A DNA stretch of 64,000 nt from Bilabrum cf. latius. Taxonomy: Eukaryota. Shown piece by piece: positions 17,512 through 63,317 of this stretch (the first letter of the stretch is position 1; each line of letters opens with the position of its first letter). A model generated the notes under the pieces. It worked only from the letters and a program-made list of their open reading frames with translations, had not been told where the DNA came from and did not search any database. The stretch spans positions 744,001-808,000 of the forward strand of contig OZ237766.1 in assembly GCA_965178125.1 (NCBI GenBank), read 5' to 3'. Made by a program: the position numbers and the translations under genes.

Positions 17512-17538
17512 GAGGAAGATTAGAAGATCTAAAACCGT

Positions 17539-33650: not shown

Positions 33651-35408
33651 CGCTGGCGCCGCAGCGGAACTTTGGGCTGTGGCGGAGAGCGCCTCTGCCC
33701 GAGCCAAACTTTCGGCTCGGGCACGGGACAACTTTGCCCAAGCCGAATAATTTAATATTTAAACTGGGTTTGCCGCGATTTCAGAGATCGCGCCCGAGCG
33801 GAATGTTAGGCTCGGGCGCCAAGCACCTGTGCCCGAGCCGAACATTGGGCTCGGGCAGGGGCGCCCTCCGCCCGAGCCTAGGGTTTTCTTTTTTTAGGCT
33901 CGGGCACGGGTATTTTGCTGATACATTGGTCAGTAACTGCGTAATCTGAAGAGTCTCAGCACCTACATCGCGCAAACGTGCAAATGCATTGACAGTACTC
34001 GTTGCGAACGTCAGGGACTCTGCCGAACGACAAACATGATCAACCAAGCCAAGTAGCAACACCAATTGTGCTCCAATCAAGCGCTTGCCAGGGCTAGCAG
34101 ACGCTCTTGGAAGCTTCAGCGGGCGGATCCCCGGCCGCGCGTGCTGGGTGGCTAGCCATGGGGTGGCTTTCCCGGCCAGCCTGGAGGCGGGCGAGGCCGT
34201 CTCGATGCAGTTGGCACTGTGCATGTGCTGGCACTGCGATGCACTGCAGGACTTGCAGCTGGGAGCTGTGTCGGGCGGTGACTTGCTGAGCATCTGCGTG
34301 GGCGGCTGCAGGACGCCCACCCGCCTGCCACCACGCCAGCTCCAAGGCAGCCCCCGTGCCCCGCCCACTCTAGCAGGTGCCTGGCATTGTGCTGACACCG
34401 GTGATATCGTGGATCTGCCTGGGCTGGCCGCTGGGGGCGAGGGTGCTATGGACGAGAACGAGGAGGGCGAGGGGGAGGGGGCCGGCACAGCGCACTTCGA
34501 TGGCGGCAAGCAGGGGCAGGAGCAGCTGCCAGAAGCACGGGTGTGGGAGCCATGGATCTGTTTGACGAGGAAGAAGCAAACCTCGTCGGGCAACCGCCGG
34601 GCAAGGTTGAAAGCAGCAGCACCAGCAGCAGTGCGGCAGCATCGTGGTGGCAGGCGGGACGGCCTGGTCCTGGATGGTGATCTGAAGGGCCTCCCTGGGC
34701 TGGCCGCCGGGTGAGTGGGGGGGCACCGGGATGGTGGACAGAAAGAGTAGTTCGTAGCCCGGCGTCGGCCAGGGTGTGTCTCGTCCGAGCGGTGATGTCG
34801 TAGCGGATGAAGTTAGCCCTGGTGGTGATGGGGTCGTGCGGAAGCCGCGGCACGGCCAGGGTGGGGCTGCCCAGCTCAAGTACCGGCAGCAAGCGCAGTC
34901 GCAAGGCCAAGGCCGACGGACAGGGCACGGCTTCCGCGCCCGACGAAGAGGAGTCGCGCCCTCAGAAGAAGGTTTGATTCATCAAGCCAAATACTGCTTG
35001 AATTGCGTGTGTTTCTGTACATTGTTCTGGCAGCAGGATCATCATGCCGGGAAGCCTCCGACCGCTGCCCAGGCGGTCGAACTGCACGCCGGTGGCGATG
35101 CCATCCCCATCTACCAAGCAAACAGCCATAAAGATAGCAAAATACCCGTGCCCGAGCCGAAAAAAAGAAAACCCTAGGCTCGGGCGGAGGGCGCCCCTGC
35201 CCGAGCCCAATGTTCGGCTCGGGCGCAGGTGCTTGGCGCCCGAGCCTAACATTCCGCTCGGGCGCGATGTCTGAAATCGCGGCAAACCCAGTTTAAATAT
35301 AAAATAATTCGGCTTGGGCAAAGTTGTCCGTGCCCGAGCCGAAAGTTTGGCTCGGGCAGAGGCGCTCTCCGCCACAGCCCAAAGTTCCGCTGCGGCGCCA
35401 GCGGGGGA
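33651..35408. mobile_element. Non-autonomous long-TIR (foldback-like) DNA element, copy 2
   Basis: Colinear and highly similar to 17539-19309 in the same orientation; the leftmost C-run is missing. Confidence 0.9.
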
Positions 35409-35460
35409 CCAGTGGCATAGTGTGATGGTGCTGAAGTTGATTTGCAGTGCCCACTGTTTT

Positions 35461-36528: not shown

Positions 36529-37331
36529 AGTGCCTATTGTTCGACGAAACGAATCTAGATTCTAGAATCTACCTCTCAAAAGGATCCGCCCTGTCAACTC
36601 AATGTCCTGTGCGTGCCGCAGGGCAGAGTTCAACCCTAAACACTATCTGAGATATATAAATACCAGAGATGTATCGGATACTAGTGTTGACGGGAAACAG
36701 CAGCGCTACGAACGAACGAACGAGCCAATCTGTGGGTTTTATAGCTCCGAGTCCAATGATAGCGTGCTAATACTGGTTTACGATCCGTACACCAGGAGCG
36801 TCACGAAGCGAGCATCACGAGTGGAATCCGAGAAGAAAAGAGAATATATAAAATTCAAGCTCGCCAACCTACCCAAACGCTATCACTTGAGCAAAAAATT
36901 GTCAAGAAGCGAGCGTTTGTTAATTGCTCAATTCCGGTTCGATTGTTGCAAACGATGCCCTGAACGCTACAGCTGCTGCCATCAGCTGAACCTGAAGAAT
37001 TTGTTCGTGGTATTTGTATATAGTAGTCTGTATTGTACGACACGGCGACTTAAAGTCCTACGGAATCAAGAGATTAAAGTACCCTGGAGGAATAAGACTC
37101 CGCGTTCATGCGCCGTGGGAAAAGTCGCGGGCCAAGAAACCCAATTCAAGCGGTAAGACAAGTAAATTGGATGGCAATATGATCACAGTACGATTCCACT
37201 GCGTTTCGGTGTTGGCTTGCTGCACGTGCATGATTCTCTTAAGCAACGGCACGCATTTGTCGGCCTTCAATCCATCTGCACAGGCAATGTAGTAGTGCGA
37301 GGTATCCTGTCGTACTTTCGTATACCGTCTC

Positions 37332-40300
37332 ATGCAGAGAAGGCGCGCATCTGCCATGATATTTGCCGGAGTGGTGATCGTGTTGGTTGCGCTAGTTGTC
37401 AGTAGTGTCGTGGTGCCGTCCGCAGCGAGCCGCGGGAAAAAAGATGTCCCCGGCAGGACACGAGGCGGACATGCAATCACTAGACCAGTTGAACCGGGGC
37501 CCAATCCACCCATCCCACAGTTCGGTGGTGGCACTAGCACTCTCCAAGCCCCGCCCACGTGGCCCAATGCAGGCCCCTCTCCTGCGGCGCTGCAACCCGG
37601 GCCCACACAATGCCCCCCCGGCTCCGAGTCCCACGTGCTCTTTTCCTTCGACGAGAGGGACCTGCCTGGCTTCTTTATCGCCACGCAGTCCATGTTCGCG
37701 CACGCCAGCAGGCCGGAGTGCATCCGGGTGCACGTGCTGTGCCCCTCCACTGCAGAGGCTGACATCAAGGCTGCGTGTAGCTGTGCCATGCCTCCGAGCG
37801 CTTGTTCCTCGCTGCATTTCGTCAGGACGCGCCCGCTTACCCGCACGGTCACAGGGTCCGAGACCCACGGCAAGCACCTGGGCTCCCCGTACAACCTGGG
37901 CCGGCTGGAGGCTTTCGACGCCCTGCCCCCCTCTGTGCACAGGTTCGCCTACCTCGATGCGGACATTTTGGTGCTGGGGGACATACACGACCTGGTGCAC
38001 TTCGACCTGCAAGGGAACGCGACTGCCTTCGCCTGGGAGCCGGACAGGTCCATGTGCAACCCGTGGGGAGTCAAGTGCGGTCACCCCGCTCTGGAGCAGG
38101 CAGGCCTTACGAAGCAGTTGCTGCAGCGCAAGAAGGTGGGCAATGCGGGGATCATGGTGGTGGACCTAGATGAGTGGCGGAGGCTGGACCTGAGTCGCCA
38201 GGCACGCCTTTGGTCCCAGCTGAACCACGACGGGAAGCTTTTCCTCCTCGGTTCGCAGCCCCCCATCATGCTGGCCACCATCAACAGCCGGGCTCAGCTG
38301 CCCAGCTAGTGGAACCTCAAAAACGAGAAGCGGAAGGACACGAAGCTGGTGCACTTCGCGGGGCCAGGCAAGCCTTGGCAGGTCGTGCGCCCGGGCCCCT
38401 ACGCCTAGGCCAGGCGCTACCTGCAGTGCAGGGTGGGCTACTCGAGCGCGGCTACCTCTGCTGACCGCAACATGGTGGCCTACTCGCGGTACATCGGCAA
38501 GTACGGGGTCAGGACGGAAGGAGAAGCGTTGCCTTAGACAGTGAAGGACATCCCCCTGCGGGACCTGCTTGCGTGGCGCGCGCGTCAGCCACAATCGCGC
38601 AATCTCGGCGTGTTCATCGACCGTGCCGCTCACAAGCATTTTGTGCGCACGATGCTGGGGCAGGAGGGATACACCACCGAGACGATGGGGGTGCTGGAGG
38701 CGGGGGAGGGCGGGGACGTGGGCGCCATGGAGGAGGGCTTGCTGCCTCAGGGGCTGCTGGCGGGGACCCAGGGGCCTCACCTGATCGTGCGCCCGCTGCA
38801 CCTTCCCGGGCTGGTGATGCATGTCAAGGATGGTCTCGTGACCAACTCGCCGTGGAAGGAGGACGAGGGGAAGACAGTGACCAAGGAGCTGGTGTCCGGT
38901 TGGCTGCAGGATGTGGGCAAGCGGTGCCAGCACTGTGAGACGGAGCGGCAGAATGCAGACGTGACGAGGGGGCTGATTGTGGAGAGGGAGGAAGAGTCGC
39001 TCGAGGGGCAAGAGGGGGTGCGCCTGCTGCAGGACGGCCTCAAGATCTGGTGCACGCGGGGGGTGCCCATGTTCATAGAGGTGGAGAAGCACTCGGCCAG
39101 CGGGAAGACTCGGTCCTTCTACACGCCCGGGTGGAGGCTGCTGGCGGCCAGCAAAAAATACCCGGTGGATCCAGAGGCTGTCGGTGTCAGGGCGCCCATG
39201 CTGCTGCCCGAGGCGGTGCGTGTGGCGGCAGAGTTGAGCAAGTCCTTCTCCTTCGTGCGAGTGGACCTGGGCTCGATCGGGACTCGGGTGGTGGTGCAGC
39301 GGCTGTCGTTCGTTCCAGACGGGGTGGACGGGCCCCGCTTCCAGCCCCCTGCCTTTGGATACGCTGTCTCCAAGCTCGTGCAAATGGCACCGTCTGTGGC
39401 AGCGGCTCGGGCAGCCATGCTGCCCTTCGTCAGACAGCAGCAGTGCGCCAAGACCCTGGTTACGGGCGCGGCCGGGTTCATCGGGAGCCACCTGTCCAAG
39501 GAGCTGCTGGAGAGCGGGCGCCCCGTGGTGGGGATCGACTCGTGGAATGCGCTGGACGAGGAGCACAGCGCGCTGATGGACGCTCGGGTGGCGGGGCTGG
39601 AGAAGGATAAGGGCTTCCACCTCGTGCGATCAAGCACCTGCGACGTGCATACCATGGTGGCTCTGCTGCACGAGCACAGGGTCTGCGACATCGTGCACCT
39701 CGCAGCGCAGCCGGGGGTGAGGCGGTCCACTCGCAGGCCCATGGAGACGGTAGAGCTCAACGTGGGCTGCTTCGCCAGTATCCTCGAGGCTGTAGCTCGG
39801 TTCAACTCCACCATCCGGGTCGTGTACGCTTCCAGCTCCTCCGTGTACGGGGCCAATGCGGTGTCCCCCTTCGTGGAGACGGCATACCCCGTACCAGCCA
39901 GCATATACGCAGCCTCAAAGGTGGCCGATGAGGCGTTGGCGCAGTCGTACCGCAACGTGCACAAGCTGAACCTGCTGGGACTGCGGTTCTTCACCGTGTA
40001 CGGGCCCCGGGGCAGGACGGACATGGCTGCGTACATGTGGGCGCGGGCCATCGAGGCAGGTGAGTCCATCAAGGTGTTTCAGACTCCTTCGGGGGTGGAG
40101 ATGGCCAGGGACTTCACATATGTGGGTGATATCGTGAGCGGGATCCGGTCTGTGCTGCCTAGGAGGGACGTGACGGGCGTGCTCAACATCGGTAAGGGCA
40201 GTCCAGACAAGGTGTCAGACCTGATCGGCGAGCTGGAGGTGTGCTTTGATAAGAAGGCGACCCTGGTTAAGGTGCCACAGCCACCGGGGGATGTGCCGAT

Positions 40301-40448
40301 TACATTTGCAGACACGGCTCGGATGTCTAGCTTGGTGGGGTACGCCCCGCAGGTCAGTCTCAAGGAGGGCATTCGGCGGTTCTGCGAGTGGTTCAAGTCG
40401 GATGAGGCCAAAGAGGTCAGGAGCAAGGCGGCTATTGCATTGGGTTGA
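37332..40448 (+). CDS. Triple fusion: GT8 glycosyltransferase, degenerate TupA-like ATP-grasp, UDP-glucuronate 4-epimerase-like SDR (copy 1)
   Basis: TM anchor. GT8: YLDADILVLGDI, NAGIMVVDLDEWR, LGSQPP, HFAGPGKPW. ATP-grasp-like: FSFVRVDL. Epimerase: LVTGAAGFIGSH, HLAAQPGVR, YASSSSVYG, YAASK, LRFFTVYGPRGRTDMA. TAGs at 38307, 38406 and 38535; ends TGA. Confidence 0.9.
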
Positions 40449-40534
40449 ATAAATACTCGGGTTGTCGTGGACGTAACTGGATAGGCCTACCTAGTTTTGC
40501 CGGTACGTGCAAATAAGCTTGCGCTCATGTCTCC

Positions 40535-42865
40535 TCAAGCCCCTACAGGGCCTGCACCTCGACGAATGGCCTTCAGCTGCTCTGGGGAAGCCGCATTCGG
40601 GTCATGCATAGTCAGCGGCATCATCGCCCGAGTGACCTGCTCCTGTGTCAGGACAGTCCCGGGTGGTGCCCCAAACCCCGACTGCCACCCGTCGCTATTT
40701 TTGGGCTCAGGTAGATGGTGCGCCACAATGCGGCCCGCAGTTTCTTCCAGCATAATAGGCTCAGTCAACACCAGCGCGCCGGCAGGTGTAAATGTCATCT
40801 CGCCGAGGTAGACCTTGCCATTGACCTCGAACAAGTCCACGCGCACAAAGGGGAAGGGCTCCGAGAGCTGCTGGGCGATGCGCACCATCTCTGCCAGCTT
40901 GGAAGGGGGCTGGGAAGGCTTTTTCATGCGGGGTGGTCCACCGAGCTTGTATACGTCAGGGAGGAACGTCCAGTCAGGAGAGAAGAATCCATTGTGCTTG
41001 CCACCTCTCTCATACCTGCTGGCTACTTCCAACACGTACATAATGGTTCCCCGCGAGCAAAAGAACTTGTAGTCCGCAGGAATCGCCCCACCCTCGTACA
41101 GCTTCTCCAAAATCAGCGACCTGCGCATACCCACGTACTGCAGCTCTGTCTCGGCCATGTGCACGCGCTGGGACACCTGCCTCAGCACGCCCTGGTACAG
41201 CTCCTTGGACAGCTCCTGCCCTTTGCAGTTCCTCTCTCCCATGTTCCTGGACACTGCATCAAAGTGCCCCGTGCACACGATCATTTTGCCGTCAACCACG
41301 ATCGCATTGGTCCCTGACATGCTGCTGGCCTTGAGCGCAAAGTCCCTCATCCCGGGGACAGGCGGCTAAAACCATGGCTCAGTGTTGGGCAGTACGAGTC
41401 CGAGGGTGTCTACGGTGTGTCCCTCGCCCAAGTGCACCCTGGCAAAATGCTTCACGGAGGTCTTGTCCGCGAACACCGCCCGCGCCGTGTTGGGCCTATA
41501 CACGCTCAATGACAAGAAGAAATCGGACACACGCAAACCATCACGGTAAGGCGGCACCCGCTCCTGCAATGCCTTCTATAGCGCCTTTGAATCCACCCGT
41601 GGCCTCCTGGGCCAGTCCAGGAACCACGTCCTAAGGTCCCTGTAGTACCACACGTACTGCAGCCGCTCGTAGTCAGCAGATGACAAACCCGGCCGAGGAT
41701 CGTACCTGCACTCAAGTAAACGCTGAGCCTCCCGCCGAACCGTCCTTGCGCTGCAGCTCTCTGCATCCTCCAGCTCCGCCCGAGTGGCGGGCGCGTCCCT
41801 CCCCTGCCATGGCTTCTCCCCCACCCTCGACACCTCAGGCAGCCCTTCCCATGGCTTGGACTCGCCAGACATTCGTAAGAGTACCGGCCCACCGGCACCG
41901 GCCTGCAATGGACAGCTGGGAGGCGATATCAGCACCCCACCTGTGCTTCCAGCACTGCCAGGAGCCCATGCCTCCACAAGCCCCGGTCGCAACCTGCCCT
42001 GACTCACCCAGGCCGGGGGAAACGCGGCGGCTGCTTCATTAAGCACTTTCCCATTGACCGGGCACTGCGACCAGCCTGAGGTGTCCTCCTCCGCCAAAGC
42101 GTGTTCCCGGAGCTGGGCCTGCCACCTCTCTGTGTGCACCAGCAGAGGGGCCCCCGGGGCCAGGCCTCTGCCCTGTGCCCCCGGTCGGTCGCCCACCAGC
42201 ACCGTCTCGGGTCTTCTTCTCAGATCCTACAGCAGCTCCGATGGACTACGTGTCACCATCACGTGCGGGTCAGGTAGCACCAGCACCGCCTCCGACTCGA
42301 GACCGGCACCTGCACTGCAGGAGGTCAGCCTGGCCAGCACGGCCATGTCTCTAGCCAGCCTGAGTGCTGAAGTCCAGCGCGGCTCGGCTGCAGCTTCACC
42401 TGAAATGGATAGATGGTCCTACGACGGATCCGGAATATGAAGAATGCCATCGCAGCTGGCTGCTGGGAGGTAGCAAGAGCAAGCATGCGATACCTCGCGC
42501 CAAGCTCTATTCCCGGCCAGCATGGCAAATCGAACAGGCTCAGCGCCAGGAATCGCGGAAAGTCGTTCCACGAATGACCGTGCAGCTATAAGAAAAGCTG
42601 GTGCTGACATGAAATCGACTGGGACTGCAACTAAGAAACCCTTTCTAGACACGGTGGACTGCCCAATCTACGATCCGCCTGTTGAACCAGGTCTGAAAGC
42701 ATACAGACCAGCAGTTACTACCAGGGTAACCATGACAATAGTCAGTGCGCCATAGAGGCGCGGTTGTGTCGGTGACAGTCTCCAGGCAGCCTTTGAATTT
42801 GAGCTGTCGTGCCGATTTGCACCAAATCGGTTCGGCAGCACCGATCGCTTGCCTATCTTCCGCAT
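40535..42865 (-). CDS. TupA-like ATP-grasp protein with degenerate GT8-like N-terminal domain (copy 1), type II membrane
   Basis: Motifs ADKTSVKHF, FALKASSMSG, ILEKL, DYKFFC and FPFVRVDLFEVNGKVYLGEMTFTP. 777-codon frame with TAGs at 42668, 42419, 42227, 41576 and 41366; ends TGA. Confidence 0.85.
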
Positions 42866-43317
42866 GGCTTCCTACAACCAAGCTAATAACAGAATTGCTC
42901 TTCTATGAATATAACAGTACGGGGAATGCAAGCCTTCTAGCAACCAAGCAACTTGAAGGGCGACCTGAGGATGAACTCAGCGTGGCGGCCGTGATCACTT
43001 CTATTATATCGTAGTGTAGCACATGCAAGTGCACGCAACTAATTGTCTGGCTGCTGATCAAGCGCTCACCGGCGGTCACTCGAAACATCAAAACAATACA
43101 ACAGTTGTACTAAATACGAACCAAAACCACGGTACTTCGGACTAGATTAGTAATAGCCGTGTGCTCATCAGTGCAAAGCCCAAGGCCCACAATGGACCCC
43201 ATTGGGGATCTCAAGGTGGTCAGAGCGGGCTTGCCAGGGGGGCTATCGAACAAGACTAGCCCCTGAGGATGATGGGTGCAGGTGGGCAACAACCGCCACA
43301 AATTGTAGTGTACAAGT

Positions 43318-43397
43318 GCATCCGGCGGTTCTGCGAGTGGCCCAAGTCGCATGAGGCCAACGAGGTCAGGAGCAAGGCGGCTATTGCGTTGAGTTGA
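43318..43397 (+). pseudogene. Duplicated fragment of the epimerase 3' end
   Basis: Matches about 40369-40448 with a few substitutions, including the stop codon. Confidence 0.8.
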
Positions 43398-43539
43398 GGC
43401 TGAGCATGTCTAGCGTTGTTCGTGCTGTGCAGCGTACTGCGTAGACTAGAATGGCAGGATGTGCAGTCGTCACACTGGTTTGGAGCACGACTTCTCGTTC
43501 GTCCCTCGGGAAAGCTGTTTACAATTGGTTGTCTGGAGC

Positions 43540-43822
43540 AAAGCCTGTTACGTATGATAGTATTATTTGCTATTTTGCTTTGCGTGGCAACGATGTCAAC
43601 GTTTAGCAAGGCTGCCGGACAGGCCCACGACGGTCTATGTGTGCCGAGGGTCCCAATTCAGTAGAGTATGCTGCGTCCTTCGGTGTGGGACGATGAAGTG
43701 CCCCTAGTTCTGACAGCCTTTCCGAATCGGAAGCCAGGAAGTGTTACCCTTCTTGTACAGGGCGTGGTGCTTCCTATTCGAAGCTGCGTGATTGGCAGCC
43801 ACATTGTCGGGATCATGAACGC
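43540..43822 (+). pseudogene. 283-bp duplicate of the 5' end of the GT92-like gene
   Basis: Identical by eye to 44552-44834, then diverges abruptly. Confidence 0.85.
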
Positions 43823-44565
43823 AGGGACTCGCAAAATAGGAATCAGCGAAGAAACCAGGCAGTCCTGGAAAAGCCAGGCGAATAGGGGACTGGAGTGCAT
43901 CTGTGGGGGCTGCACAGCCCGAATTATCAGCGCGAATGGCAGAGTCCACAGGTGCAGTTGCCGCTTTTGGGGCCGAGACGGTACAAAGGTGGGCCGTGAA
44001 GCTGGTCGAGCCTACCATTTGGAACGACTGTAAAAATCCATGATACCATTGAATACTAGAAGTGCGAATATATACAATCACGAAGTTGCAGCAAAATCGA
44101 AATGGCAAAGTTGATTCGCGAAATCCTGGCCATGGCATGAAATCGAGCCATACTTGCCGATATTTCTCGGTATCGAAGTCATAGGTACTCTCAAATGAAA
44201 ATAATAGTAATTAGCCTTCTTTCGGAGAAGGAAAGGAAAGCAATGCGGCATGGCAGGGACTTACGGCTGATGGCAGAATTATTGTCCCCAATCTCGCGCC
44301 AGAATCGGCCCAAGAACGCCCTGAGTTAAGCGTCCCGAATCTTAGTATCAAATGACCGTATCAGCAAACCGAAACTAGAAAACACGTGCGTTTGTGGTCA
44401 AGGATATATTGAGAGAGGGAGTAGTTCGCTGCGGGGAGCCCAGGGGTTGTTAGAAAGTTCGTTTGAAGTCGTGGGGGGCGTCAAAATTCCGGAAGTGGCT
44501 CCTGAGTACTCGCATCCCTCGCTCTCCCCTCGCTGTTTACAATCGGTTGCAAAAGCCTGTTACGT

Positions 44566-45906
44566 ATGATAGTATTATTTGCTATTTTGCTTTGCGTGGC
44601 AACGATGTCAACGTTTAGCAAGGCTGCCGGACAGGCCCACGACGGTCTATGTGTGCCGAGGGTCCCAATTCAGTAGAGTATGCTGCGTCCTTCGGTGTGG
44701 GACGATGAAGTGCCCCTAGTTCTGACAGCCTTTCCGAATCGGAAGCCAGGAAGTGTTACCCTTCTTGTACAGGGCGTGGTGCTTCCTATTCGAAGCTGCG
44801 TGATTGGCAGCCACATTGTCGGGATCATGAACGCTTACCAGATAGCATTTAGTTCTGCGCGTGCGGCAGCAACACTCGTCGTTGAGTGTGAGCCACTTCC
44901 GAGTGGTACATATCCTAGGCATGGGGACCATGTCACCGTGATGCTTAGTAGGGGCGATCGCGGCTTGGTCCCAACAGCTATGCGATGGGACCATCGCCTG
45001 GTCGACGAGTGGCAACCAGCAGATTCCGGCCCGCGATACTTCTTGTGTGCGGCAACTCAAGTCAAAAATATGGCCAAGTATCTTCCCGACTGGGTGCAGT
45101 ACCACCGCCGCATCGGCGTGGATAAGATGTACATCTACGACAACAACAGCACGGATGGGATGGCTGCGCTTGGGCGCACGCTGGACGGAGTGGAGGTCAT
45201 CCCGTGGCCCTGGAGGCGGAGTCAGCGGCAGGCATACACACACGCACGGCTTATCGGCCGCCGCCGCTGCCGCTGGATGCTGTTCATGGACCTGGATTAG
45301 TACATATTCGCAGGGGACCAGCCGGGGGGGTTCGCGAGCCTCGTGCGTCGAGTCACCAGGGAGCCGGGGGCAGGGGGGGGCAAAGCATTGGCGGATGGGG
45401 ACAGGGTCGGGGGGGTGTAGCTCAGGAGCAGGCAAATGACTACTCGAGACATCACCTAGTGCCCACCGGAGGGTGTGCAAGTTCCAGAGGCGTATCTCGA
45501 CCGCAAACCAGACAAGCAAAGCTGGGACCCGCGGACCAATGGTTTGGTGGCGCCGGATGAGTGCATTGGCATCCATTGGATACACAACAGCTACTTGAGA
45601 GATGGAGCCGTCGAAGTAGAGGTCCCATCGGAGGATGCGCACTTCCTGCACTACAGCTACAAGTGCTGGCGCGAGATTTTCCTCCAAAAGTTCATGGGAA
45701 GGAACGGCGTCCTGGACTGGAAGTACGACCCATCTAAAGTATCACCAGACAAGCCGATTCAATCGTACGTGGATGGAGGGAGGGCAGCCACCGTCAGAGA
45801 CACGTCCTTTCGAGACGCGAAGAAGTTGGTTTAGGCTGGCTCAGTCCCCGTGCAGTTGGTCCTGCCACCGTTTTCTACGGAGCCTGTTGCAATGACGTGT
45901 ACATGA
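44566..45906 (+). CDS. GT92/DUF23-like glycosyltransferase
   Basis: Signal or anchor at the N-terminus; CAATQVKNMAKYLPDWVQYHRRIGVDKMYIYDNNSTD, WMLFMDLD*Y and HFLHY. TAGs at 44674, 45298, 45418, 45457 and 45832; ends TGA. Confidence 0.85.
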
Positions 45907-46007
45907 AACGTATCAGCTGGTAGGATGCATACAGGCCTAATGAATGACGATGATCAATCCGCGGCGCCAGTAGTGGCAATGCCAGTCACGGTGCCACCAG
46001 TGGTTAC

Positions 46008-46124: not shown

Positions 46125-46191
46125 GTACAGTGGGCCCAAGAATACATCCAAAGGCAATCTCAATCCATTCACGACAAGTTGTAAGCCCAAG

Positions 46192-47772: not shown

Positions 47773-49683
47773 ATGAAAGTCAGGCAAGCCCGTTCAAGAC
47801 ATGGACCTCCCAAACAATACTTGTCAATGAAGGCATGGTACCTGGTGCTAGTGACAGTGGGAGTGTGCATCGCAATTTTTGTGGCAATTGTATAGGTTGC
47901 TCCTCCTGGTAGCTCTTGGACTCAATGTAGTGGAGCAAATTGTAGTCCCACCACGCAGGATTTGGCAGATAAAGACTCAATTATAAGCGCGTCAGAGCCT
48001 TCGAAAGCACATATCCTGATGTCGTTTGATGGCCCTGATGTAGCTGGCTTCCCAGTGGCCGCAAGATCGATCTTGATGGCCACGGCAGACCCCGCGCTGG
48101 TTCATTTCCACCTGGTCACGCCGCAGGCATCTGCCGCCAAGGTGCGTTAGGCTTGCACGTCTTGTCTTGACGGCATCGGCGGAATCGATTCATCAGGCGC
48201 AGCAGCATGCAGCACTGGGTAGCCGCACCAAGGGGTGTTTTGCTGCGAAGACCAAGTACACTTCCTCCGCGGCGTGGACACAAGTACGACCACGGCTGTG
48301 GGTATCGCGGCCAAGCGGGTCTCCTCCCCTTTCAATGCGGCCCGGTTCGCAGGGATGGATGCAATGGTGGATGTGGCAGACCGTTTTGTGTACATGGACC
48401 CCGACATCGCAGTCGCAGGTGATGTGCAGGAGCTGGTGCACATGGACCTGGGGGGTTAGGCCGCCGCCCTTGCACGGATCCTGCACGTCAAGGGCGAGCA
48501 GAAGCAATCCATGTGCTCGGTAAAGGTGGGAGTGGACTGTAACGGACCTGGCGTGAGAGAGCGTTTGCTGGGGCTGGGAGTGGATACCAAGAAGCTGTCC
48601 AAAGAATGGGTGGGTAACGCTGGGATCGTGGTGATCGATGGAGCCAAATGGGGGCAGCAGCGGCTCGGCGACGCCTCCCGCGAGTGGATGGCCAGGAATG
48701 AAGGGGGCAAGATGTGGTAGCTGGGCACGCAGCCGCCCACAAACCTGGCACTCCTAGGAAACAGGGCGGAGATAGATCCTCGTTGGAACACGCCTTGGAT
48801 ACGGCTTGGTCGCACGTCAGAAGGGGATGAGGCCCCACTGCTGATGCATTTCCCCGGAGAAGAGTATAAGGCATGGCGGACTAGCCCAAAGAACATGGCC
48901 AAAGTCATCAAGGGGCACTGGGCCGCCCAGCGTTACTACGACCTTAGCGTCCTGTACCACCGCGCGTGTTTCGTGGGGGTGGGCAGCGAGCCGGCACCAG
49001 AGGCAGGGGAGGGCACCCGGCGATGGGGCTGGGATGCAAAGACAGGGATACGGGTACCACCACGGGAAGCTGGGGTGCTCTCACGGAGCGCAGACCCGTT
49101 CCGCTTTCGCCGCGAGCCCGCTGTGCTTGTGGTGGTTGCTCTGGATGGGGAGGAGCGGGAAGTGGCAAATCTGATTGTGGGGGCCGAGAAGAGCCTGGCC
49201 TCGCCCTGGCCCTGGACCGCGCTGCAGGTGTTTGTGGCCGCGACGAGTGAAAAGGTGGTCAATGTGGTACGAAGGAAAGCTGATTGCATCCCGGGAGGCA
49301 CGGGCGAGGGCGAAGAGTTATCGATGGAGACGTGCAGGTCCATTCGTGGAGTTGTCATGGGCACCCCGATGCAGCATGGCGACCATGGGGGTGGGCTATA
49401 GATAACCGGTGCATCGGTTGTGTGTCGCGATGGTGGCGAGTGGGACCCGTAGGGGGCTAGACCGCTAAGGGCTGGCATTTGGCGGGAGACCCAAGGGGCC
49501 TACATGCGCGGAGGTGCACCAGACAGGCTGGGCGATCGGTTTGGAGCAGTCGAAGGTGCCCTTGGAGAGCTGCCCAGCTATGTGACGAGGGCCATCGTGG
49601 TGCCGTGGCCAGGTGGCGGGACCGTGGTGGGTGACGCGTGGGAGGCACTGCATGGGCCTGGCTCGTGCTACCAAGCAGGCTAA
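47773..49683 (+). CDS. GT8 glycosyltransferase with C-terminal extension (copy 1), type II membrane
   Basis: TM anchor; YMDPDIAVAGDV, GNAGIVVID, MW*LGTQPP and LMHFPG. 7 TAGs (47893, 48148, 48220, 48457, 48718, 49399, 49450); ends TAA at a position comparable to the paralog's TGA. Confidence 0.85.
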
Positions 49684-49909: not shown

Positions 49910-52285
49910 TCAGTGGCGTTTCTTGTGCAACCGCTTGAGCTGCTCCGTGGTGATGGCCTCCGGGTCATGCTTGGTCAGCGGCTGCATCGCCTGCGTCACC
50001 TGCTCCTGGGTGAGCACCGTCCCGGCAGGTACCCCGAGTCCAGAGTCCCAACCGTCCGGTACTACTGGCTGCGGCAGGTGGTGCGCCACGATGCGGCCTC
50101 CGATGGCCTCGAGCGCCATCGGCTCCACTGGGGCATGCGCACCCCTCGGTGTGTACGTCATCTCCCCCACATATACCTTGCCGTTCACCTCGAACAGATC
50201 CACGCGCACAAACGGGAAGGGCTCCGAGAGCTGCTGGGCGATGCGCACCATCTCTGCCAGCTTGGATGGGGGTTGAGAAGCTTCCTTTGCTGGGTACGGG
50301 TACTCGAACTCAACCACGTCTGGCAAGAAGGTCCAGTCGGGCAAGTAGAACCCCCGCTTATTCTTGCCTTGCTCGAAGCGCCCGTCCACTTCTTGCACGT
50401 AGATCACGCTGCCTCGGGAGCAGAAGAACTTGTAGTCTGCTGGGATGGCGCCCCCTTCGTACAGCCGCTCCAGGATCATCGACCGCCGCACATGGTCATA
50501 CTGTTTCTCGCGGCCGTTGCCCTGGCGTCGTTTTGTCACCTTAGATAGGACACGGTCGAATATTTCGCCGGAAAGCCCCTGCCCCTTGCAGCCCGGCAAG
50601 CCAAGCTCTTTAGCCACGTTTATGAAGTAGCCTTGGCAGATGATCATCTTGCCATCACGCAGGATGGCATTGACGCCAGCCAAGTTGCTGGCCTTGAACG
50701 CAAAATCAGACAGCCCGTCCACCGGAGGCCGGAAATTCGCAGCCACCTCTGGAAATACCACGCCCAGTGTATCCACAGAATGCCCTTCCCCAATCGCTAG
50801 GCGTGCAAAGTGCTTCACAGATGCCTTGTCTGTGAAGGGGGCATAGTTGGTTTGTCCCTAAGACGCTCCCATTCGCACGGTGAGGTCGGTCAAGCGGATG
50901 CCATCTGCCCTGGGAGGCTCCCTCGGGTTGCTGCGCACCTCCCCAACAGGCACAGATGGACGAATGGGCCCTGGATGGAACCAGTCTCTGAAATAGCGGT
51001 AGTACCACACGTACTGCAGTCGCTCATACTCCACGGACTCCATCCCGGGCCTAGCCACATACCTGCACTCCAGCAGGCGCAGCGTCTCCTGCTTCACCGT
51101 CAGAGGGTTCGGGTCACCGCCAGGAGGACATACAGCCAACTCGACCCCAGCACTAGATGGTGCACGCTGCCCCGGCACCGGCAGTCCCTCCCACGGCTTG
51201 ATCCTGTCCACTAGCCGCAGCAGCACGGGCGGTGAGGGAGCCATGGAGCTTCCTTGCCTGACTGAGGCCGGACAACCAGGAGAGGAGATTCGCAGGGCAC
51301 CCTGGCCTGCCTCTGCTTCCCGCAACAGGCCCACTGAGACTGAGTCCATGGGTTGCACAATGATACTGGAGGGGAAGAATTCGGTAACAGATCCCTGGGT
51401 CTAGGTCAGGGCATCCCTTTGCCCCCCTTCATTCAGAGGGCACCTCCAATCTGACCCTGCCAGTCTCCACCGCTATCCATGCACGAGCAAGACCTCAGCA
51501 CTAGCCGCGCCAGCACCAACTGGCATGGATGAACCCCTTACTCTCGATGACATCCCGCCCCCGGAAAGCACAACTGGCCTGGTGGTCCCGTAGCCGTCTT
51601 CATCCTCGAAACCCTACATGAGCTGCATTGGATCCCGTGACGCTATCAGATGGGGATCCGGCAGCACCAGCACTGCCCCCGGTGCCGGCTGCTGCTCCTC
51701 TTCCTATCCGGTGGCAGGCAGAGAGGCGCACGAGGCCAGGGACACGAGCACACGGCGGTCAGCAGCCGAGCGGGTGTCGTCCTCCCACCGAGCTGGGGCG
51801 CGAGAAGCGGCGGACCGAGTCGTGGACTGCTTCCCCTCCTTCCTAGTCTGCTGGTCCGCCACTCGAATGATGGAGTCGCAGGTACCGGTGGGCAGGTAGC
51901 ACGGGCACGAGCCCTGAATCTCGGTCCAGGCAAGGTCGTCTGCCAGCACGGCAAAGCGGATGTCAGAGCTACGCGAAGCTCTCTCATACAAGGACCGTGC
52001 ACCGATCAGGAAGCTAGGTGTGTTCGCATAATCAACAGGGGCAGCAACCAGAAGGGTCAAAGCCGTCTGGTCAGCCTGTGCTCGTCTGAGCGTAGGCTAT
52101 GATCTCCCCAGTATCGCCCATCCTGCAGCCACACAGACAATAGCAATCAAAACGCTATTTGTGTAACGACTAGCCACGACGCTGCAGCAAGAAGTGTACA
52201 CCTGCGTGGCCGTGGATCCAACAACTCGTCGCAGTGATTGCTGTTTCTCCTTGCCTTCTCTAGAACCAGTGTGTCGACGTTGCAT
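49910..52285 (-). CDS. TupA-like ATP-grasp protein with degenerate GT8-like N-terminal domain (copy 2)
   Basis: Motifs TDKASVKHF, DYKFFC and FVRVDLFEVNGKVYVGEMTYTP. 792 codons with TAGs at 52097, 51704, 51614, 51473, 51401 and 50858; ends TGA. Confidence 0.85.
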
Positions 52286-53795
52286 GCTCCAGCTGATGTG
52301 CGAGGAGCCTCGTGGAACAGTTTGTATACTCTCTGGTGCTGGATGCTAGCGCACTACTAGGACTCCCCAGGGTGCAACCGGTAGCACGCTCTAAAAGTCT
52401 GCTAGTGGTAATAACAGAAGAGACTTAAAATTTGCTAGACATCTGGCCAAAAGAGGAGCTGAATCGAACATTACGTTAAGACACGCGCGCCAGCATGAGA
52501 TATGCAATGCAACTTCGGGGCGCAGTCTCGAGCCCAAACGGAAAGTACAACTCAGGCATATGCAAACCATTTAAATGGCCCGTCTTACCTTTGTAGGGCT
52601 AGCGTCTACTTGAGTTTCCGAAAGGGTCGAATAGTGCGTTGGGAACCCAAAATCACCCACAAAAGGTAAGGTAACGTGCACTTTCCCCCGTCGGCCCGTC
52701 GGCCGAGTCCGGTCGCATAGGAAGGATGTGGTCGCACTGGGTTGCCAATGTAGTCGTCCAAAATGTGGCATCAGCTGGACAGTTGCTGAAGGCTGGTCCT
52801 AACGATAAGGTTGCAGTTCGACAACAGGGGGAACATGAGACGCAGGCCACCAACGAGCTGGGACGAGGTGGCAGCGGGCAGCGGACAGGCCAATGAGTAG
52901 GGGAGGTGATGGAATTTGCAGTCAGGTGGGGAGGTCTGATGTGCCCAGAGATGATCACGAAGGCAGGCTGCTGCTGGAAGTGTAGCGCTGAGAATGATTT
53001 GGGGGGAGGGAGGGAAGTGTGGCAGAGACGAGTCAGCACCGTGCTCTGCACATAAGCTTAGCGTGTCTGTTAATTGAGAAGCGTGTTATATGGTTGGCAG
53101 CGAACGGATTCCCGCACAGTCGATCCGGAGTCCGGACGGGAGGCATGAAGAGGTGGAGTGAGACGGGCCTCCGCATTTCTCTACTTTATTGGAACCATCG
53201 CAACTGACGGCGATCGGGCCCGGATCTGACCATGTGTAGGCAGGAGTAACAAAGTCAATTGTATCAGAGTTCATCGCAGTTGTGCCAGCCACACCAACCC
53301 AAACCACTGGTGGATTGGCCATTGCAGGGCATTGCCACTTTCACGCATGAGCACCTTGCTTCAGGCTACCACCCACTGGAGTAGTACCAGTGCCACTAGC
53401 ACGACATAGCAGTGTTTACCATACAGCGTAGGTGCCGTGCAAGAAGTATATTTCAGCCGCTCTTGCGTATTGCACGGTAGAAGCTGGTGCTATTCGCAAT
53501 TTGAAGTTGAGCATAATACATGTCAGTGAGGAGCCGAAAGACCCACATGCCGGAAAATCATGTATTAGCTGTAAGCTACGGTACACAATGCGAATTCAAT
53601 GCCCGCCTTCTGTTTCAGGAGTGTCTCCAACTATAAGTTTGCAGGTAGCGTCAGTTGGTCCCTGTCACTTGTTGCCCCCGATTCACCCAAAGGTTCTTTT
53701 TCCCGATTATTATTTAGTTTTAATGTTAGCAGGTACTTCATTGGTGTGGGGTGACTTGCAGGTCGCTTGGTCATCGTTTTGCCCAGAGACAACTG

Positions 53796-56700
53796 ATGGC
53801 AGCCATGCTATTCGCCGGAGCTGTTCTAGTCTTGGTGGCGCTCTTCGCGAGCAATGTAGTTCTGCCGTCTGTAGCTAATCGAGTTAAGCTAAGTCCTCCT
53901 GGCGCTACGCGAGGCCAACAGCCAGCTGTCCGTGTCGCTGTGCCGGGCGAAGCCCCGAGCACAGGAATAGGCCGGGGGTGCCCCGCCGAAGAGCAATCGC
54001 ACGTGCTCTTCTCGTTTGATGAGCTGGACTTGCCGGGCTTTTTCATCGCCACTTCCTCTGTGTTTGCCAACACCAAGCGGCCGGAGTGCATCAGGGTGCA
54101 TGTGCTGTGCCCCTCGTAGGCCGAGGCAGACATCCGGGCCTCGTGCGCCTGCTCCATGCCTCCCTAGGCCTGCGCCTCCCTGCACTTTGTGCGCACGCGG
54201 CCCTTGACCAAAACAGTCACTGGCTCCAACACCCGCGGCAAGCACCTGGACTCCCCGTACAACCTGGGTCGGCTGGAGGCTTTCGACGCACTGGCCCCTT
54301 CTGTGGGCAGGATCGCCTACCTGGACTCTGATGTACTCGTGCTGGGGGATGTGCGGGAGCTCGTGCAATTTGATCTGCAAGGTACCGCGACTGCCTTCGC
54401 CTGGGAGCAGGACAGGTCTATGTGCAACCCATGGGGGGTCAAGTGCGGTCACCCCGCTCTGAAGCAGGCAGGCCTTACGAAACAGTTGCTGCAGCGCAAG
54501 ATGGTGGGCAATGCAGGGATCATGGTGGTGGATCTACAAGAGTGGAGGAAGCAAGATCTGAGCAGACGGGCCCGGCTCTGGTCTCACCTGAACCGCGACG
54601 GGGAGCTTTTTCTCCTCGGTTCGCAGCCGCCCATTATGCTGGCCACCATCAACAGCCGGGCTCAGCTGCCCACTGCCTGGAACCAGAAGAATGAGAAGAA
54701 AAACGACACGCAGCTCGTGCACTTTGCGGGCCCGGATAGGCCCTGGCGGGTGGATCGCCCCGGCCCGTACGCCGAGGCCAAGGCATTCCTGCGATGCCGC
54801 ATGGGCTACAAAGAGGCCTCCACCTCGCGTGACCGCAATATGGTGGCTTATTCGAGGTATATGGCGGAGTACGGCGTCAGGACGGAGGGTGAGGCGCTGC
54901 CGCAGACCGTCAAAGACGTTCCTCTGCGTGACCTGCTAGCCTGGCGTGCAAGGCAGCCAGTGGCACAGCGGCTGGGCGTGTTTATAGACAGGGCAGCCCA
55001 GAAGCACTACGTCAGGACGGTGCTGGGGCAAGAGGGGTACTCAACGGAGACGCTCGCTGTGCTTGAGGCAGGACCACAAGGGGATGTAGGCGCGCTGGAC
55101 AGGGACCTGCTGCCCCGAGGGCTTCTGGCGAGCTCGTCCTCCTCCACGGTGAGGGGCGGTGGCGGACTAGGTGCCTCGCCGGGGTCTATGCATCTCATCG
55201 TGCGGCCGCTGCACATGCCTGATCTGGTGATACACGTGACGGATGGCGCCGTGGATTCATCCCCCTGGAAGAAGGATGTGGGCCAGGCTGTGACGGAAGG
55301 ACTGATCCGTAAGTGGCTGGGCGTGGTGACCCAGCGGTGCCATCGCTGCGAGACAGAGCTACAGAACGCGGGTGTGACGAGGGGGCTGATTGTGGAGAGG
55401 GAAGAAGAGTCGCTCGAGGGGCAAGAGGGGGTGCGCCTGCTGCATGACGGCCTCAAGATCTGGTGCACGAGGGGGGTGCCCATGCTGGTGGAAGTCGAGA
55501 CGCGTGGAGGGGGCGGCAAAGGGCGCCGCAGATCGTTCTACACCCCCGGATGGGACCCCCTCCGAGTCAGCAAAAAATACCCGATGGATCCAGCGGCCAG
55601 CTCTCGCTAGGCCCCTCTGTTGCTACCAGAGGCCCTTCGGGTGGCTGCCGAGCTGAGCAAGCCCTTCTCCTTCGTTCGGGTGGATCTGGGCTCGATAGAC
55701 AACCGCATCGTGGTGCAGCGGTTCTCTTTCGTGCCAGACGGGGTGGACGGCCCCACCTTTGAGCCCCCTGCCTTTGGATACGCTCTATCTCGGCTCGTGC
55801 AAGCCCCCCCTTCGCATGCTGCTGCCAAAGCCGCCATGCTGCCCTTTGTCAAACAGCAGGAGTGCAGCAAGACCTTGGTGACGGGCGCGGCCGGATTCAT
55901 CGGGAGCCACTTGTCCAAGGAGCTGCTGGACAGTGGGCGCCCCGTGGTGGGGATCGACTCGTGGAATGCGCTGGACGAGGAGCACAGCGCGCTGATGGAC
56001 GCTCGGGTGGCGGGGCTGGAGAAGGACAAGGGCTTCCACCTCGTGCGATCAAGCACCTGCAACGTGCATGCCATGGTGGCTCTGCTCAGGGAACACAGGG
56101 TCTGCGACATCGTGCACCTCGCAGCGCAGCCGGGGGTGAGGCGGTCCACTCGCAGGCCCATGGAGACGGTAGAACTCAACGTGGGCTGCTTCGCCAGCAT
56201 CCTCGAGGCTGTAGCTCGGTTCAACTCCACCATCCGGGTCGTGTACGCCTCCAGCTCCTCCGTGTACGGGGCCAATGCGGTGTCCCCCTTCGTGGAGACG
56301 GCATACCCCGTACCAGCCAGCATATACGCCGCTTCCAAAGTGGCGGACGAGGCGTTGGCGCAGTCGTACCGTAACGTGCACAAGCTGAACCTGCTGGGCT
56401 TGCGGTTCTTCACCGTGTACGGGCCCCGGGGCAGGACGGACATGGCTGCGTACATGTGGGCGCGGGCCATCGAGGCGGGTGAGTCCATCAAGGTGTTCCA
56501 GACTCCTTCGGGGGTGGAGATGGCCAGAGATTTCACGTACGTAGGAGACATTGTGAGAGGTATCCACGGGGTGCTGCCTCGACGGGACGTGACGGGCGTG
56601 CTCAACATCGGTAAGGGCAGTCCAGACAAGGTGTCAGACCTGATCGGCGAGCTGGAGGTGTGCTTCGGCAAGAAGGCCGTGCTGGACAAGGTGCCGCAGC

Positions 56701-56867
56701 CGCCGGGCGACGTACCGATCACCTACGCGGACACGACCAAGATGGCGAGGCTGGTGGGATACCGCCCTGAGGTGAGCTTGTAGGAGGGCATCCGGCGCTT
56801 CTGTGAGTGGTTTAAGTCGGACGAGGCCAAGGCAGTGAGGCGCAAAGCAGCGGTGGCTCTTGGCTGA
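53796..56867 (+). CDS. Triple fusion: GT8, degenerate TupA-like ATP-grasp, UDP-glucuronate 4-epimerase-like SDR (copy 2)
   Basis: Colinear paralog of 37332-40448. TAGs at 54117, 54165, 55608 and 56781, none shared with copy 1; ends TGA at the same position. Start uncertain. Confidence 0.9.
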
Positions 56868-60567: not shown

Positions 60568-62511
60568 TCACTATGCTCGGGGGCACAGCGCGATGCCGGC
60601 TGGATCTACCTTGAACTACACCTCTGGATGCACGAGCACGATGGCTGCCCGCACGTACTTCCACACCTTTCGGAGGCCCTGCCGCGCCATGGTAGCTCGT
60701 TTCTCATAGCGGTCACCCGACTCCCGCCCCTCCTGCCACTCGTTCTACTAGTTTTGCTAGGGCCCCCTCAACCCTGTGCCAGCGAAGTGCCGCAACTCAT
60801 CCTACCCCAGCATACGAAAGGGCAGCAGCTCCTCCAGTCCCTGCCCTCCAACCTGTCGGCACGCCACGAACGGCTCACGCCCATTGATACTTATCTCTCG
60901 GCTTGCATGTTTGGTTGGCAACATCAGCGAAGCACGCGTGGCCACCCCTTGCCCACTCTCCTTGTATTCGGGAGCAGCGCTAATCCTCTCGATGGCCCTG
61001 CATGTCTCGTTCGAAGGGCCACTCACTGACCGCAAGCACGCCTACACAGCATCCTCGTACACTTCCTTGGAATCAGTAACCGCCATCACATGCAGCGCCG
61101 TCCACGGCCAGGGTGCTTCCAGCTGTCGCTCGGCACTCCTCAGAGCCATAAGGAATGCCTCGCCATCTCCTCTCAGCAGCACCATCACAAGCACCACGGG
61201 CTACCTCCTCCAATCGAAGGGGACCGACTGCCGCGACACAACTCCTGCTGCGGCTGCAGGCACTCGGGTCCCAGTCGCTGGGTCCCACGTCCAGTACACG
61301 CTGGATGCCACCCTAGGTGCAGGCGTGCTGCCCGAACCCACGAAGCAAGCCTCGTGGTACAGCACGCTCAGGTCGTAGTAGCGCTGCGCTGCCCACCACC
61401 TCCGCTTCCCCACCAGACGCATGTTTTCCACACTAGCCCTCCACGCCTTGTGCGAGGGTCCCTTGAAATGCATAAGCTTCGGGGCCTGATCGACACCATA
61501 CACTAACCCCGCCATGTTCCAACCCGTGTTCCACGTTTGCGGGATGCGGGCCCGCCTGCCCAGCAGCGCCAGGTTCGTGGGCGGCTGCGTGCCCAGTGTC
61601 CACATCTTGCCCCCCTGGTTCCTGTCCATCCACGTCTTGGCCTCATCGCCGATGCCCTGCTGCACCCATTTTTGCGTATCGATGACCATAATCCCAGCAT
61701 TGCCCAGCCACTCTTTCTCGAGGCGTGACACGGACATGCCCCAGCTCTGCAGGGACTCCTTGACACGCCGGTTCTTGCAGTCCAAAGCGGCCAGCGCGAA
61801 GCACATCGTGGGCCACTTGGTGCCCCGATGGCCAGGCCTGGGGCACATGGCAGCCGGCTGGCCCTCTAGCTCCATCCAGACGAGCTCATGCACGTCCCCG
61901 ATCACAGCGATATCAGGGTCCAAGAACGCAATCCTGCGGGCATGAGCGGCCATGGCGTTGATCGCATCAAACCTTGCTGCGTTGAAAGGAGACTTGATTC
62001 GCTCCGCAGCCGAACCCACCACGGTTTCACGGTCCGTGCTGATGCCATCTAGGAAGTGCAAGTGTACGTCGCAGCAAAAAGCGCCAGGCTTGGGTGGATT
62101 GCAAGCTGGGCCTTGCAAGCCTAGCCCATCTAGGCACCGGGTGCAAGCTCTTCGGACAATATCGTTTGCGCGAGGAGACACGACCAAATGGAAATGGATG
62201 AGTGAGGGGTCAGCGGCAGACTGCAGGATGGAGCGGGCGGCCACTGCGAATCCTGGCGCATCGGCCTCATCAAACGACATCAGGATATCTACCTACTCTC
62301 GAGGTTTTGGTGCTACCTCCAGCCCAAGTCCGGGTGGCATTGGAGATTTGATAGCCTCTGTAACCCCAGCGCGGTGAGATATTGACAAGGCTATCGTAAT
62401 GGTAGCCGTGACCAGCACCAAAAGAGCTATCAAGACGCGGTGCTGGACGAAAACTGCAACCCACCGCGACCTTGCCTGTGGTGACCGCCGCTTGCTAGAG
62501 CTTTCCATCAT
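60568..62511 (-). CDS. GT8 glycosyltransferase with C-terminal extension (copy 2), type II membrane
   Basis: Motifs FLDPDIAVIGDV, GNAGIMVID, MWTLGTQPP and LMHFKGP. Similarity to copy 1 continues past the TAG at 61201 (PWPWTAL, GDRY, YVRAAIV). 9 TAGs; ends TGA. Confidence 0.85.
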
Positions 62512-63317
62512 CAAAAAGCCAAAATATGCCTGTGGAATCCCGTGGAACTACACTGCCGCTGCACGTATTGTGGCGACGAGATGCTTCCAACCGCTGCGAC
62601 GCCGCCTCCACTGCTTGGCCGACCAAAGCTTTGCAAGCCCAGCACCTCGTAATGAAAGGTTGTTATTCTAAACCGTGTCGGGAAGAAGTAGTTGAGCGCG
62701 GGAATCCAAACAGGGAACTCCGAGATAATCATTCCTACTTTGCAGCATAGTAACGTGTGGTTTTGTATATCAGACGCATACTGCCACAAGCATGCTCAGC
62801 CCAAAGCTAGGGAGGACTTCGCCAAACCGGCGGACAATCCGTTTATTCAACTAGCTATTATTGCTCATGCGTTTTTGATCCAGCCATGGCTTCAGTCTCG
62901 GCCGCGGCCATACGCTCTAAGATGCTGCGAGTACTTGCGAGAACCGCACCTGATGCGTCTTGCTTGCGGATACCTCGAACTGCGCGACAGTTCTCGCCAC
63001 CGCACTTACGTCGGAAACCCCGATTATGTTGCTACAACAGGCTTTGCACATTTTGGCTGGATCGGATGGCCAGGGCTTGGCGCGCTCTCGATCCACCTCC
63101 GTTTGTTGCCGATTGCAAGCCAAGCTGAAGTGGTTGCAACTTCAAAATTAGCAATTCTGTGGCATGTTGCGTGCTATTTTGAGCGCTGAATGACATCGAA
63201 TTGGTCCCCGCTGCACAGGAGCGGAACGACCGTGAGCTGGGTCGGGCTCAATAAAGTACTGCTTCATTTTTAGGTACTGCTCGAGTGCAGCTCCTGGTTA
63301 TATCAATTTAGCTCGCA

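Follow-up and report, generated by a model that had tools for sequence, protein, structure and literature searches.

What would a eukaryotic cell do with a gene that joins a glycosyltransferase of family GT8, an ATP-grasp domain of the bacterial TupA-like type and a short-chain dehydrogenase/reductase (SDR) resembling UDP-glucuronate 4-epimerase? Such a gene, here F1 (37332-40448, forward strand), lies in a 64,000-nt stretch (positions 744,001-808,000) of contig OZ237766.1 (G000:C32) from Bilabrum cf. latius (the window, meaning the whole stretch analysed), close to the contig end within a 48.6-Mb, 111-contig eukaryotic assembly. By Pfam, the window is a glycosyltransferase gene cluster with four GT8 genes, GT47 (three clear and one weak), GT92 and GT15. 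F2 denotes the three-domain paralog of F1, T1 and T2 the GT8-TupA paralogs, and G1 and G2 further GT8 genes; residues of F1 are numbered from 37332, and each number rises by 31 in the spliced form. The reading that we favour, at a probability of roughly 0.45, is a Golgi epimerase-transferase with a pseudo-ligase scaffold. Read with TAG as glutamine, F1 would encode a single type II protein anchored in membranes of the secretory pathway, probably in the Golgi. Its C-terminal epimerase would convert imported UDP-glucuronate to UDP-galacturonate, its N-terminal GT8 domain would act as a retaining transferase that places the uronic acid on a surface glycan, and its middle TupA-like domain would no longer ligate and might now serve as a spacer or as a surface for binding.

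Under the standard code the F1 stretch falls into pieces, and when TAG is read through it is a single frame of 1038 codons with in-frame TAG at codons 326, 359 and 402 and a TGA end. A preliminary description of this DNA took F2 (its 53796-56867 part, 77% identical to F1 over its length) as proof of the fusion. F2 does have Ala, Glu and Gln opposite the three TAG, but it carries four TAG itself and, read with the standard code, is interrupted as well, so the case for a fusion rests on the genetic code. In the window, 17 genes carry 91 in-frame TAG; 16 of them end in TGA and one, G1, in TAA, at a place matching the end of its paralog. The residues that face these TAG in paralogs and relatives were Gln in 7, Glu in 7 and Arg in 8 of 45 cases. 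Since no residue clearly prevails in this tally, we tested dynein columns, using 19 heavy-chain stretches of 10 kb aligned with one another, with TAG as X. Among the 191 TAG in well-filled columns, 24 stood in columns at least 70% conserved, where they faced Gln 20 times, Arg three times, Val once and Glu never; in the controls, CAA faced Gln in 19 of 28 and GAA faced Glu in 47 of 60. Fourteen of the 19 stretches are open over the full 10 kb, with no in-frame TAA or TGA. A nuclear tRNA with anticodon CTA (G000:C23:907607-907679; L017:1501-1573, reverse strand) was among 48 tRNA matches in a survey that scored 63 of 780 candidates, and the ortholog P0003 from a relative (96% identical to F1) has Gln at codon 326. 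From the dynein columns, the tRNA and P0003, we read the nuclear code as TAG for glutamine with TAA and TGA as stops (table 15 type).

Two other assignments were rejected: a Glu reading of TAG, to which the tRNA loop as well as the in-window tally had pointed, fails in the 24 conserved dynein columns, and a second Gln codon in TAA (table 6) is unneeded, given the TGA ends of 16 of the 17 genes and long dynein frames that hold no TAA. Prp8 has just four TAG, at uninformative places. The genome contains many dynein heavy chains (28 AAA_6 matches). No paper evidently on this nuclear TAG = Gln code surfaced in our search of the open literature.

Four read sets (X1, X2, X5 and X6) were compared over 37000-56950. 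A GT..AG joint removing 37153-37283 is seen in X5 and X6 and is not present in X1 and X2; the corresponding F2 joint, 53526-53732, is seen in X5, again without X1 and X2, and its position matches the F1 intron. The 5' region of T2 has a joint in X6 (52398-52589). Intron removal opens the frames to ATG 37108 (F1, 1069 aa, five TAG) and ATG 53520 (F2, 1046 aa). The frame first described from 37332 thus stands, but its start is probably 31 codons short and the true start is probably ATG 37108. Placing the F1 intron in a 5' untranslated region was rejected, as the spliced frame is open from 37108. No joint was among those listed inside the main coding exon of F1 or F2 in the four read sets, and no RNA record is on file for the F1 gene. 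An X5 contig (37283-38297) and an X6 contig (38084-38507) keep four of the five F1 TAG unchanged. All three domains match Pfam above cut-off: GT8 at residues 102-350 (E 2.5e-22), ATPgrasp_TupA at 523-664 (E 1e-11) and Epimerase at 709-954 (E 2.8e-43). A short basic N-tail is followed by one helix, the single N-terminal segment with hydropathy above 1.6 (peak 3.09), and then by a stem; there are 18 Cys and two sequons. By the Nei-Gojobori method, for the single pair F1 and F2, dN/dS is 0.19 for GT8, 0.24 for the TupA-like domain (purifying selection) and 0.08-0.13 for the epimerase. F1 is almost certainly one polypeptide, and its predicted topology is that of a type II secretory-pathway membrane protein with all three domains on one side, very probably the lumenal one. 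Its parts are as follows.

37108..37152, forward strand: probable exon 1, encoding the basic cytosolic tail; ATG 37108 opens the spliced frame, and the spliced X5 contig begins upstream
37153..37283, forward strand: intron, GT..AG, 131 nt, in the N-terminal coding region; joint in X5 and X6
37284..40448, forward strand: exon 2, the remainder of GT8, pseudo-TupA and epimerase, with TGA stop
37290, 37293, 38307, 38406 and 38535, forward strand: TAG = Gln codons
37359..37418, forward strand: signal anchor or single transmembrane helix, from hydropathy
37635..38381, forward strand: GT8 domain, from Pfam and column census
38592..39341, forward strand: TupA-like ATP-grasp domain, probably catalytically dead, from Pfam, alignment and census
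39300-39302, forward strand: R657 codon, replacing an invariant Glu
39447..40406, forward strand: UDP-glucuronate 4-epimerase-type SDR, from PDB matches and residue census

The preliminary description is borne out in several respects: one frame joins the anchor and the three domains; the motifs that it listed, DxD (D209, D211), H341..KPW, GxxGxxG (from 712) and YxxxK (Y859, K863), are all present; the type II anchor and the epimerase residue signature fit a lumenal enzyme with a domain making UDP-GalA; no joint is listed inside the coding exon, and dN/dS is low in all domains.

The GT8 domain of F1 scores 80.1 bits against PF01501 (cut-off 24.3). GT8 core residues include DxD and the C-terminal His (PMC7185993), and a column census against 142 other GT8 domains finds R191, D209-x-D211, N271-x-G273, Q309, H341, K347 and W349 kept in F1, so the domain appears intact, as first described; F2 has Arg for the C-terminal Lys. 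The nearest solved chain is LgtC (E 0.0011). In a FastTree phylogeny of 151 rows, with T1 and T2 left out and made without characterised GT8 or GAUT/GATL references, three relatives cluster with F1, F2, G1 and G2 in a clade of their own (support 100), amid unnamed matches. It is the fusion partner that points to galacturonic acid (GalA) as the donor sugar, an assignment we lean towards with modest confidence. GT8 proteins of homogalacturonan synthesis are treated as a streptophyte feature in PMC3797821, and a GalA-transferring GT8 here, if true, would lie outside that range.

The strongest competing explanation keeps the same protein and an active epimerase and gives the GT8 domain another donor (UDP-Gal, -Glc, -Xyl or -GlcA), with the epimerase tethered in the Golgi and feeding other transferases of the cluster, namely G1, G2 and the GT47 enzymes. 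The donor sugar varies among GT8 subfamilies between GalA, Xyl, Glc and Gal (PMC7185993), and the window holds two more intact GT8 genes of the F1 clade, namely G1 and G2. In a search of proteins of 570-1817 aa (8000 candidates scored; the best 120 of 188 matches listed), this type of epimerase is fused with many unrelated transferases, including TOD1/MUCI70 in 12 and GT2 in 5 of the 120 listed. By contrast, 4 of the 120 listed proteins combine GT8 with this epimerase, in no fewer than three domain orders and at separate places in the epimerase tree, which fits a repeated link between donor synthesis and transfer. We regard this explanation as possible but not probable.

A TupA-like middle domain was described from the outset, and the family match stands (PF14305, cut-off 25 bits: F1 45.2, F2 29.1). 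The domain is not intact, however, and is a probable pseudo-enzyme. The Glu of the GExT motif, present in 48/48 other TupA domains, is Arg in F1 (R657) and F2, and also in P0004, a fragment from the relative. A helix Lys (45/45 other domains with a residue there) and a strand Lys (44/45) are both Arg in F1 and F2 (F1 positions 431 and 487), and the DYK Asp (48/48) is replaced in that column by Gly (Gly569 in F1). F1 and F2 retain the hinge Glu, the Lys of DYK and the R-V-D motif. In PMC2824669, secreted ATP-grasp domains are sorted into intact and likely inactive ones by two Lys and C-terminal acidic residues. The set of residues expected of an active TupA amidoligase (two Lys, GExT Glu, DYK Asp) is incomplete in F1 and F2, and complete in T1, T2, P0022 (a T-type protein from the relative) and P0159, a distant homolog discussed below. 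From these substitutions, the middle domain of F1 is probably dead as a ligase. The alternative is a three-step enzyme with a rewired site, in which the middle domain still ligates and Arg657 replaces a metal ion. The kept residues, the conservative change of both Lys to Arg and purifying selection on the domain are in its favour; we consider it unlikely, given a Glu held by all 48 other domains, a loss of Lys and acidic residues that marks likely inactivity in secreted ATP-grasp domains (PMC2824669), and the intact TupA copies next door.

Those copies are T1 and T2, which lie with the other paralogs as follows.

40535..42865, reverse strand: T1, with anchor, degenerate GT8, intact TupA (Pfam E 1.7e-15) and no epimerase
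47773..49683, forward strand: G1, intact GT8 of the F1 clade, with a different C-terminal region and a TAA end
49910..52570, reverse strand: T2, with degenerate GT8, intact TupA (Pfam E 2.7e-17) and no epimerase; 5' end uncertain
53520..56867, forward strand: F2, three-domain build as in F1, same Glu-to-Arg change, 1046 aa
53526-53732, forward strand: F2 intron
60568..62748, reverse strand: G2, intact GT8, paralog of G1
43315..43397, forward strand: 83-nt relic of the F1 3' end, 90% identical (self-BLAST, weak tblastn match)

All four TupA matches in the genome lie within the window, and each F gene adjoins a T gene. T1 and F1 align collinearly along some 650 columns (E 6e-26); T1 and T2 align with the GT8 and TupA parts of F1 and stop before the epimerase. 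Together with P0159, they keep all 11 TupA columns checked, and their GT8 domains have D-P-H for DxD and are without NAG and the C-terminal His. T1/T2 are the mirror image of F1/F2: TupA intact, GT8 broken, no epimerase. T-type (P0022/P0395) and G-type (P0006/P0396) proteins of the relative lie on contigs whose lengths match (7331 and 7376 bases), which suggests that the cluster is conserved there. The 309 nt at 43514-43822 copy the start of the GT92 gene (97%) and, with the 43315-43397 relic, look like duplication debris.

In our proposal, the ancestor would be a GT8-TupA-epimerase gene that duplicated and then divided its work, F1/F2 retaining the epimerase and transferase and T1/T2 the ATP-dependent amide ligase. 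T1/T2 would amidate uronate carboxyls, by extension from proposals for bacterial TupA proteins: a Vibrio capsule gene of the TupA-like family is needed for phage infection and has a proposed amidation role (PMC11382117), and ATP-grasp ligases are described in teichuronopeptide and O-antigen synthesis (PMC4431377). GAUT1 requires GAUT7 for Golgi retention (PMC3355623), an earlier case of paralogs that pair in the Golgi; the F and T proteins may bind each other. Taken at its widest, the proposal is that F1/F2 and T1/T2, which would share a three-step ancestor whose build survives in P0159, form a reciprocal pseudo-enzyme complex that makes, in the Golgi, a bacterial-style surface glycan in which amino acids are joined by amide bonds to galacturonic acid; this wider scheme we hold only tentatively.

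For the C-terminal domain, the best PDB matches of F1 are 5u4q, the Bacillus cereus UGAepi (6zl6) and MoeE5. Its NAD-binding GxxGxxG is G712-G715-G718, and the catalytic residues are S835, Y859 and K863. In UGAepi, Thr126/Ser127/Ser128/Thr178 form the carboxylate clamp and Tyr149 is the base, with Glu at 128 as a decarboxylase mark (PMC7984243); Arg185 was added to the key residues in PMC12338863. Thr126, Ser127, Ser128, Thr178, Tyr149 and Arg185 correspond to S835, S836, S837, T888, Y859 and R895 of F1, so that the clamp and the Arg185 equivalent are present, without Glu at 128. Only F1 and F2 are strong epimerase matches among the six SDR matches in the genome. Of the other SDRs, three that we class by their motifs as dehydratase-, UXS- and GalE-like differ at the 128, 178 and 185 columns of a 244-row alignment, the UXS-like and dehydratase-like ones with Glu at 128. 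The domain is very likely a UDP-glucuronate 4-epimerase, judged from this residue signature. A different substrate, such as UDP-GlcNAcA, or drift to another reaction would fit the 40-47% identity to the best database relatives and the Thr in place of Pro after the Arg185 equivalent in F1 and F2. Six named UGAepi positions match, however, the TviC model gives 80 bits against a cut-off of 760, and the genome has a single UDP-sugar dehydrogenase-family match, a UDP-glucose dehydrogenase-family gene, which makes this explanation doubtful. F1 and F2 share 98% identity over the first 230 epimerase codons (window 39450-40140), where dS is 0.20 against 0.7-1.3 elsewhere, and gene conversion is the likely source of this pattern.

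The architecture recurs once among the 120 listed matches. P0159 (1362 aa, standard code, stop-free) carries all three domains, GT8 first, TupA next and epimerase last, as does F1, with which it aligns at 29% over 865 columns. It shares the Thr after Arg185 with F1 and F2 (0/235 others) and joins them in the epimerase tree (SH-aLRT 98; a quick tree of 63 of 64 chosen rows); in the TupA tree it lies loosely with them (91, not starred; 27 of 55 domains). Its residues from about 1060 to 1362 form an extra C-terminal region without a Pfam match at 1e-5, with a D-x-D-E motif that recalls the GT92 gene of the window. GT8 and epimerase without TupA occur together in the sponge protein Geodia barretti CAI8046779.1, the choanoflagellate protein Salpingoeca helianthica EP00048_P017821 and P0161. 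Transferase-epimerase fusion is therefore recurrent, and the three-domain form, though rare, is not unique. No characterised protein of this build was met in the protein searches. The fusion counts are lower bounds, because 8000 candidates were scored and genes with this code are fragmented in databases; standard-code calling yields the fragments P0003, P0004 and P0005, so the architecture is hidden there.

A Pfam scan of 65 of 150 listed matches found none with GT8 plus TupA or GT8 plus epimerase, and none of 19 long-protein matches in a TupA search had a precomputed GT8. An Atlas search with P0159 gave no cluster of this build (best score 0.89, a lead only), although bacterial clusters fusing SDR epimerases with other ATP-grasp families appeared as leads at 0.75-0.77. 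A metagenome scan gave only weak SDR loci, at least four, and one scan with P0159 patterns, a weak test of viral origin, found nothing.

The weakest explanation, that F1 is not one working polypeptide because its TAG are stops or intronic (a pseudogene or split genes) or because its product is cut into domains, could appeal to standard-code callers that split the relative's copy at codon 402 (P0003, P0005) and to the want of a contig bridging the gene, but is very improbable in view of the genome-wide TAG = Gln and the 91 in-frame TAG, the unchanged TAG in the X5 and X6 contigs with no joint listed inside the exon, low dN/dS in all domains, and a P0159 that is one stop-free protein.

Beyond the in-window TAG tally and the range of GT8 donors given above, several points weigh against an epimerase-transferase with a pseudo-ligase scaffold. 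The status of X5 and X6 as RNA is a software guess, and no contig among the read sets spans the whole F1 gene. The lost Glu is assigned a metal-binding role on the model of ATP-grasp enzymes in general. A PDB profile search gave no significant match to a solved TupA structure, and a single double-domain family supplies most of the 48 TupA domains used for reference. F1 and F2 have an Asp one residue before the DYK column, so its loss there may be an alignment shift. The best NCBIfam match for the GT8 domain is a galactosyltransferase model, far below cut-off. P0159 is a long branch in all three trees, and its GT8 is unplaced and does not group with F1/F2; it also has Asn for the first Asp of DxD (Asn-x-Asp), so that transferase activity may not be a conserved function.

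Each domain is already known. With UGAepi 6zl6 and MoeE5, F1 shares the SDR motifs, the Ser/Thr-Ser-Ser clamp, Tyr/Lys and the Thr178 and Arg185 equivalents; it differs in being the C-terminal domain of a 1069-aa multidomain protein and in the Thr after Arg185. The plant UDP-glucuronate 4-epimerases GAE1-6 are type II Golgi proteins, and in plants epimerase and transferase are separate proteins. Compared by motifs alone, F1 shares with the GT8 galacturonosyltransferases GAUT/GATL and with LgtC the DxD, NAG, C-terminal His, KPW and type II anchor. The Pfam match PF14305 is common to the four genes here and the bacterial TupA-like amidoligases of capsule, O-antigen and teichuronopeptide clusters, whereas here the domain is eukaryotic, lies behind a signal anchor and is fused to GT8; it looks dead in F1/F2, and T1/T2 have it intact. 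The Geodia, Salpingoeca helianthica and P0161 fusions resemble F1 in that a single chain with a hydrophobic segment near its N terminus carries both GT8 and an SDR of the UGAepi type; unlike F1, they have no TupA, are ordered epimerase-EGF-GT8 or GT8-methyltransferase-epimerase, and fall apart from F1 on both trees. Metazoan C7orf58, described in PMC2824669 as a secreted ATP-grasp fusion predicted to add amino acids to surface polymers and inactive in some lineages, is like F1 a secreted eukaryotic ATP-grasp fused to a glycan-modifying domain, but its ATP-grasp is of the TTL type and its partner a PC-esterase. We did not find the three-domain combination, a secretory eukaryotic TupA or the reciprocal active-site loss described in the open literature (subscription journals and supplements were outside our scope).

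The window and genome showed several further features. A MITE-like non-coding element of about 1.77 kb, with terminal inverted repeats of about 270 nt, is present at 17537-19309 and 33651-35409 (96% identical to each other), with one partial copy at 8793-9484. A 127-nt repeat at 17385-17511 and 47437-47563 (97% identical) is probably a high-copy short element, because the bin with the second copy has a depth about ten times (X1) and four times (X2) the usual. A reverse-transcriptase open reading frame at 26049-28403 (forward strand) has no TAG among 49 Gln codons, unlike its neighbours, and adjoins a TsaD-like fragment (28729-29655); 2-2344 (reverse strand) encodes a bHLH protein (Pfam HLH), and the stretch after this domain resembles PAS on visual inspection. 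Elsewhere, contig G000:C111 (L065-L068; 38.4 kb) is of mitochondrial type, with tRNAs in clusters, a tRNA(TCA) and frames that stay open when translated with table 4, and two nuclear tRNA-Ile genes (L023:1501-1573 and L059; G000:C32 and C4) carry anticodon GAT, where the usual eukaryotic anticodon is AAT.

If the proposal holds, three activities that occupy separate genes in bacterial capsule and O-antigen clusters would be joined in one eukaryotic secretory protein, and the locus would suggest that a protist amidates its surface uronic acids with amino acids. Since no solved TupA structure was found, T1 and T2, which come with a built-in pathway context, make the TupA reaction testable. The mirror-image loss of active sites between F1/F2 and T1/T2 would be a clean natural case of subfunctionalisation.

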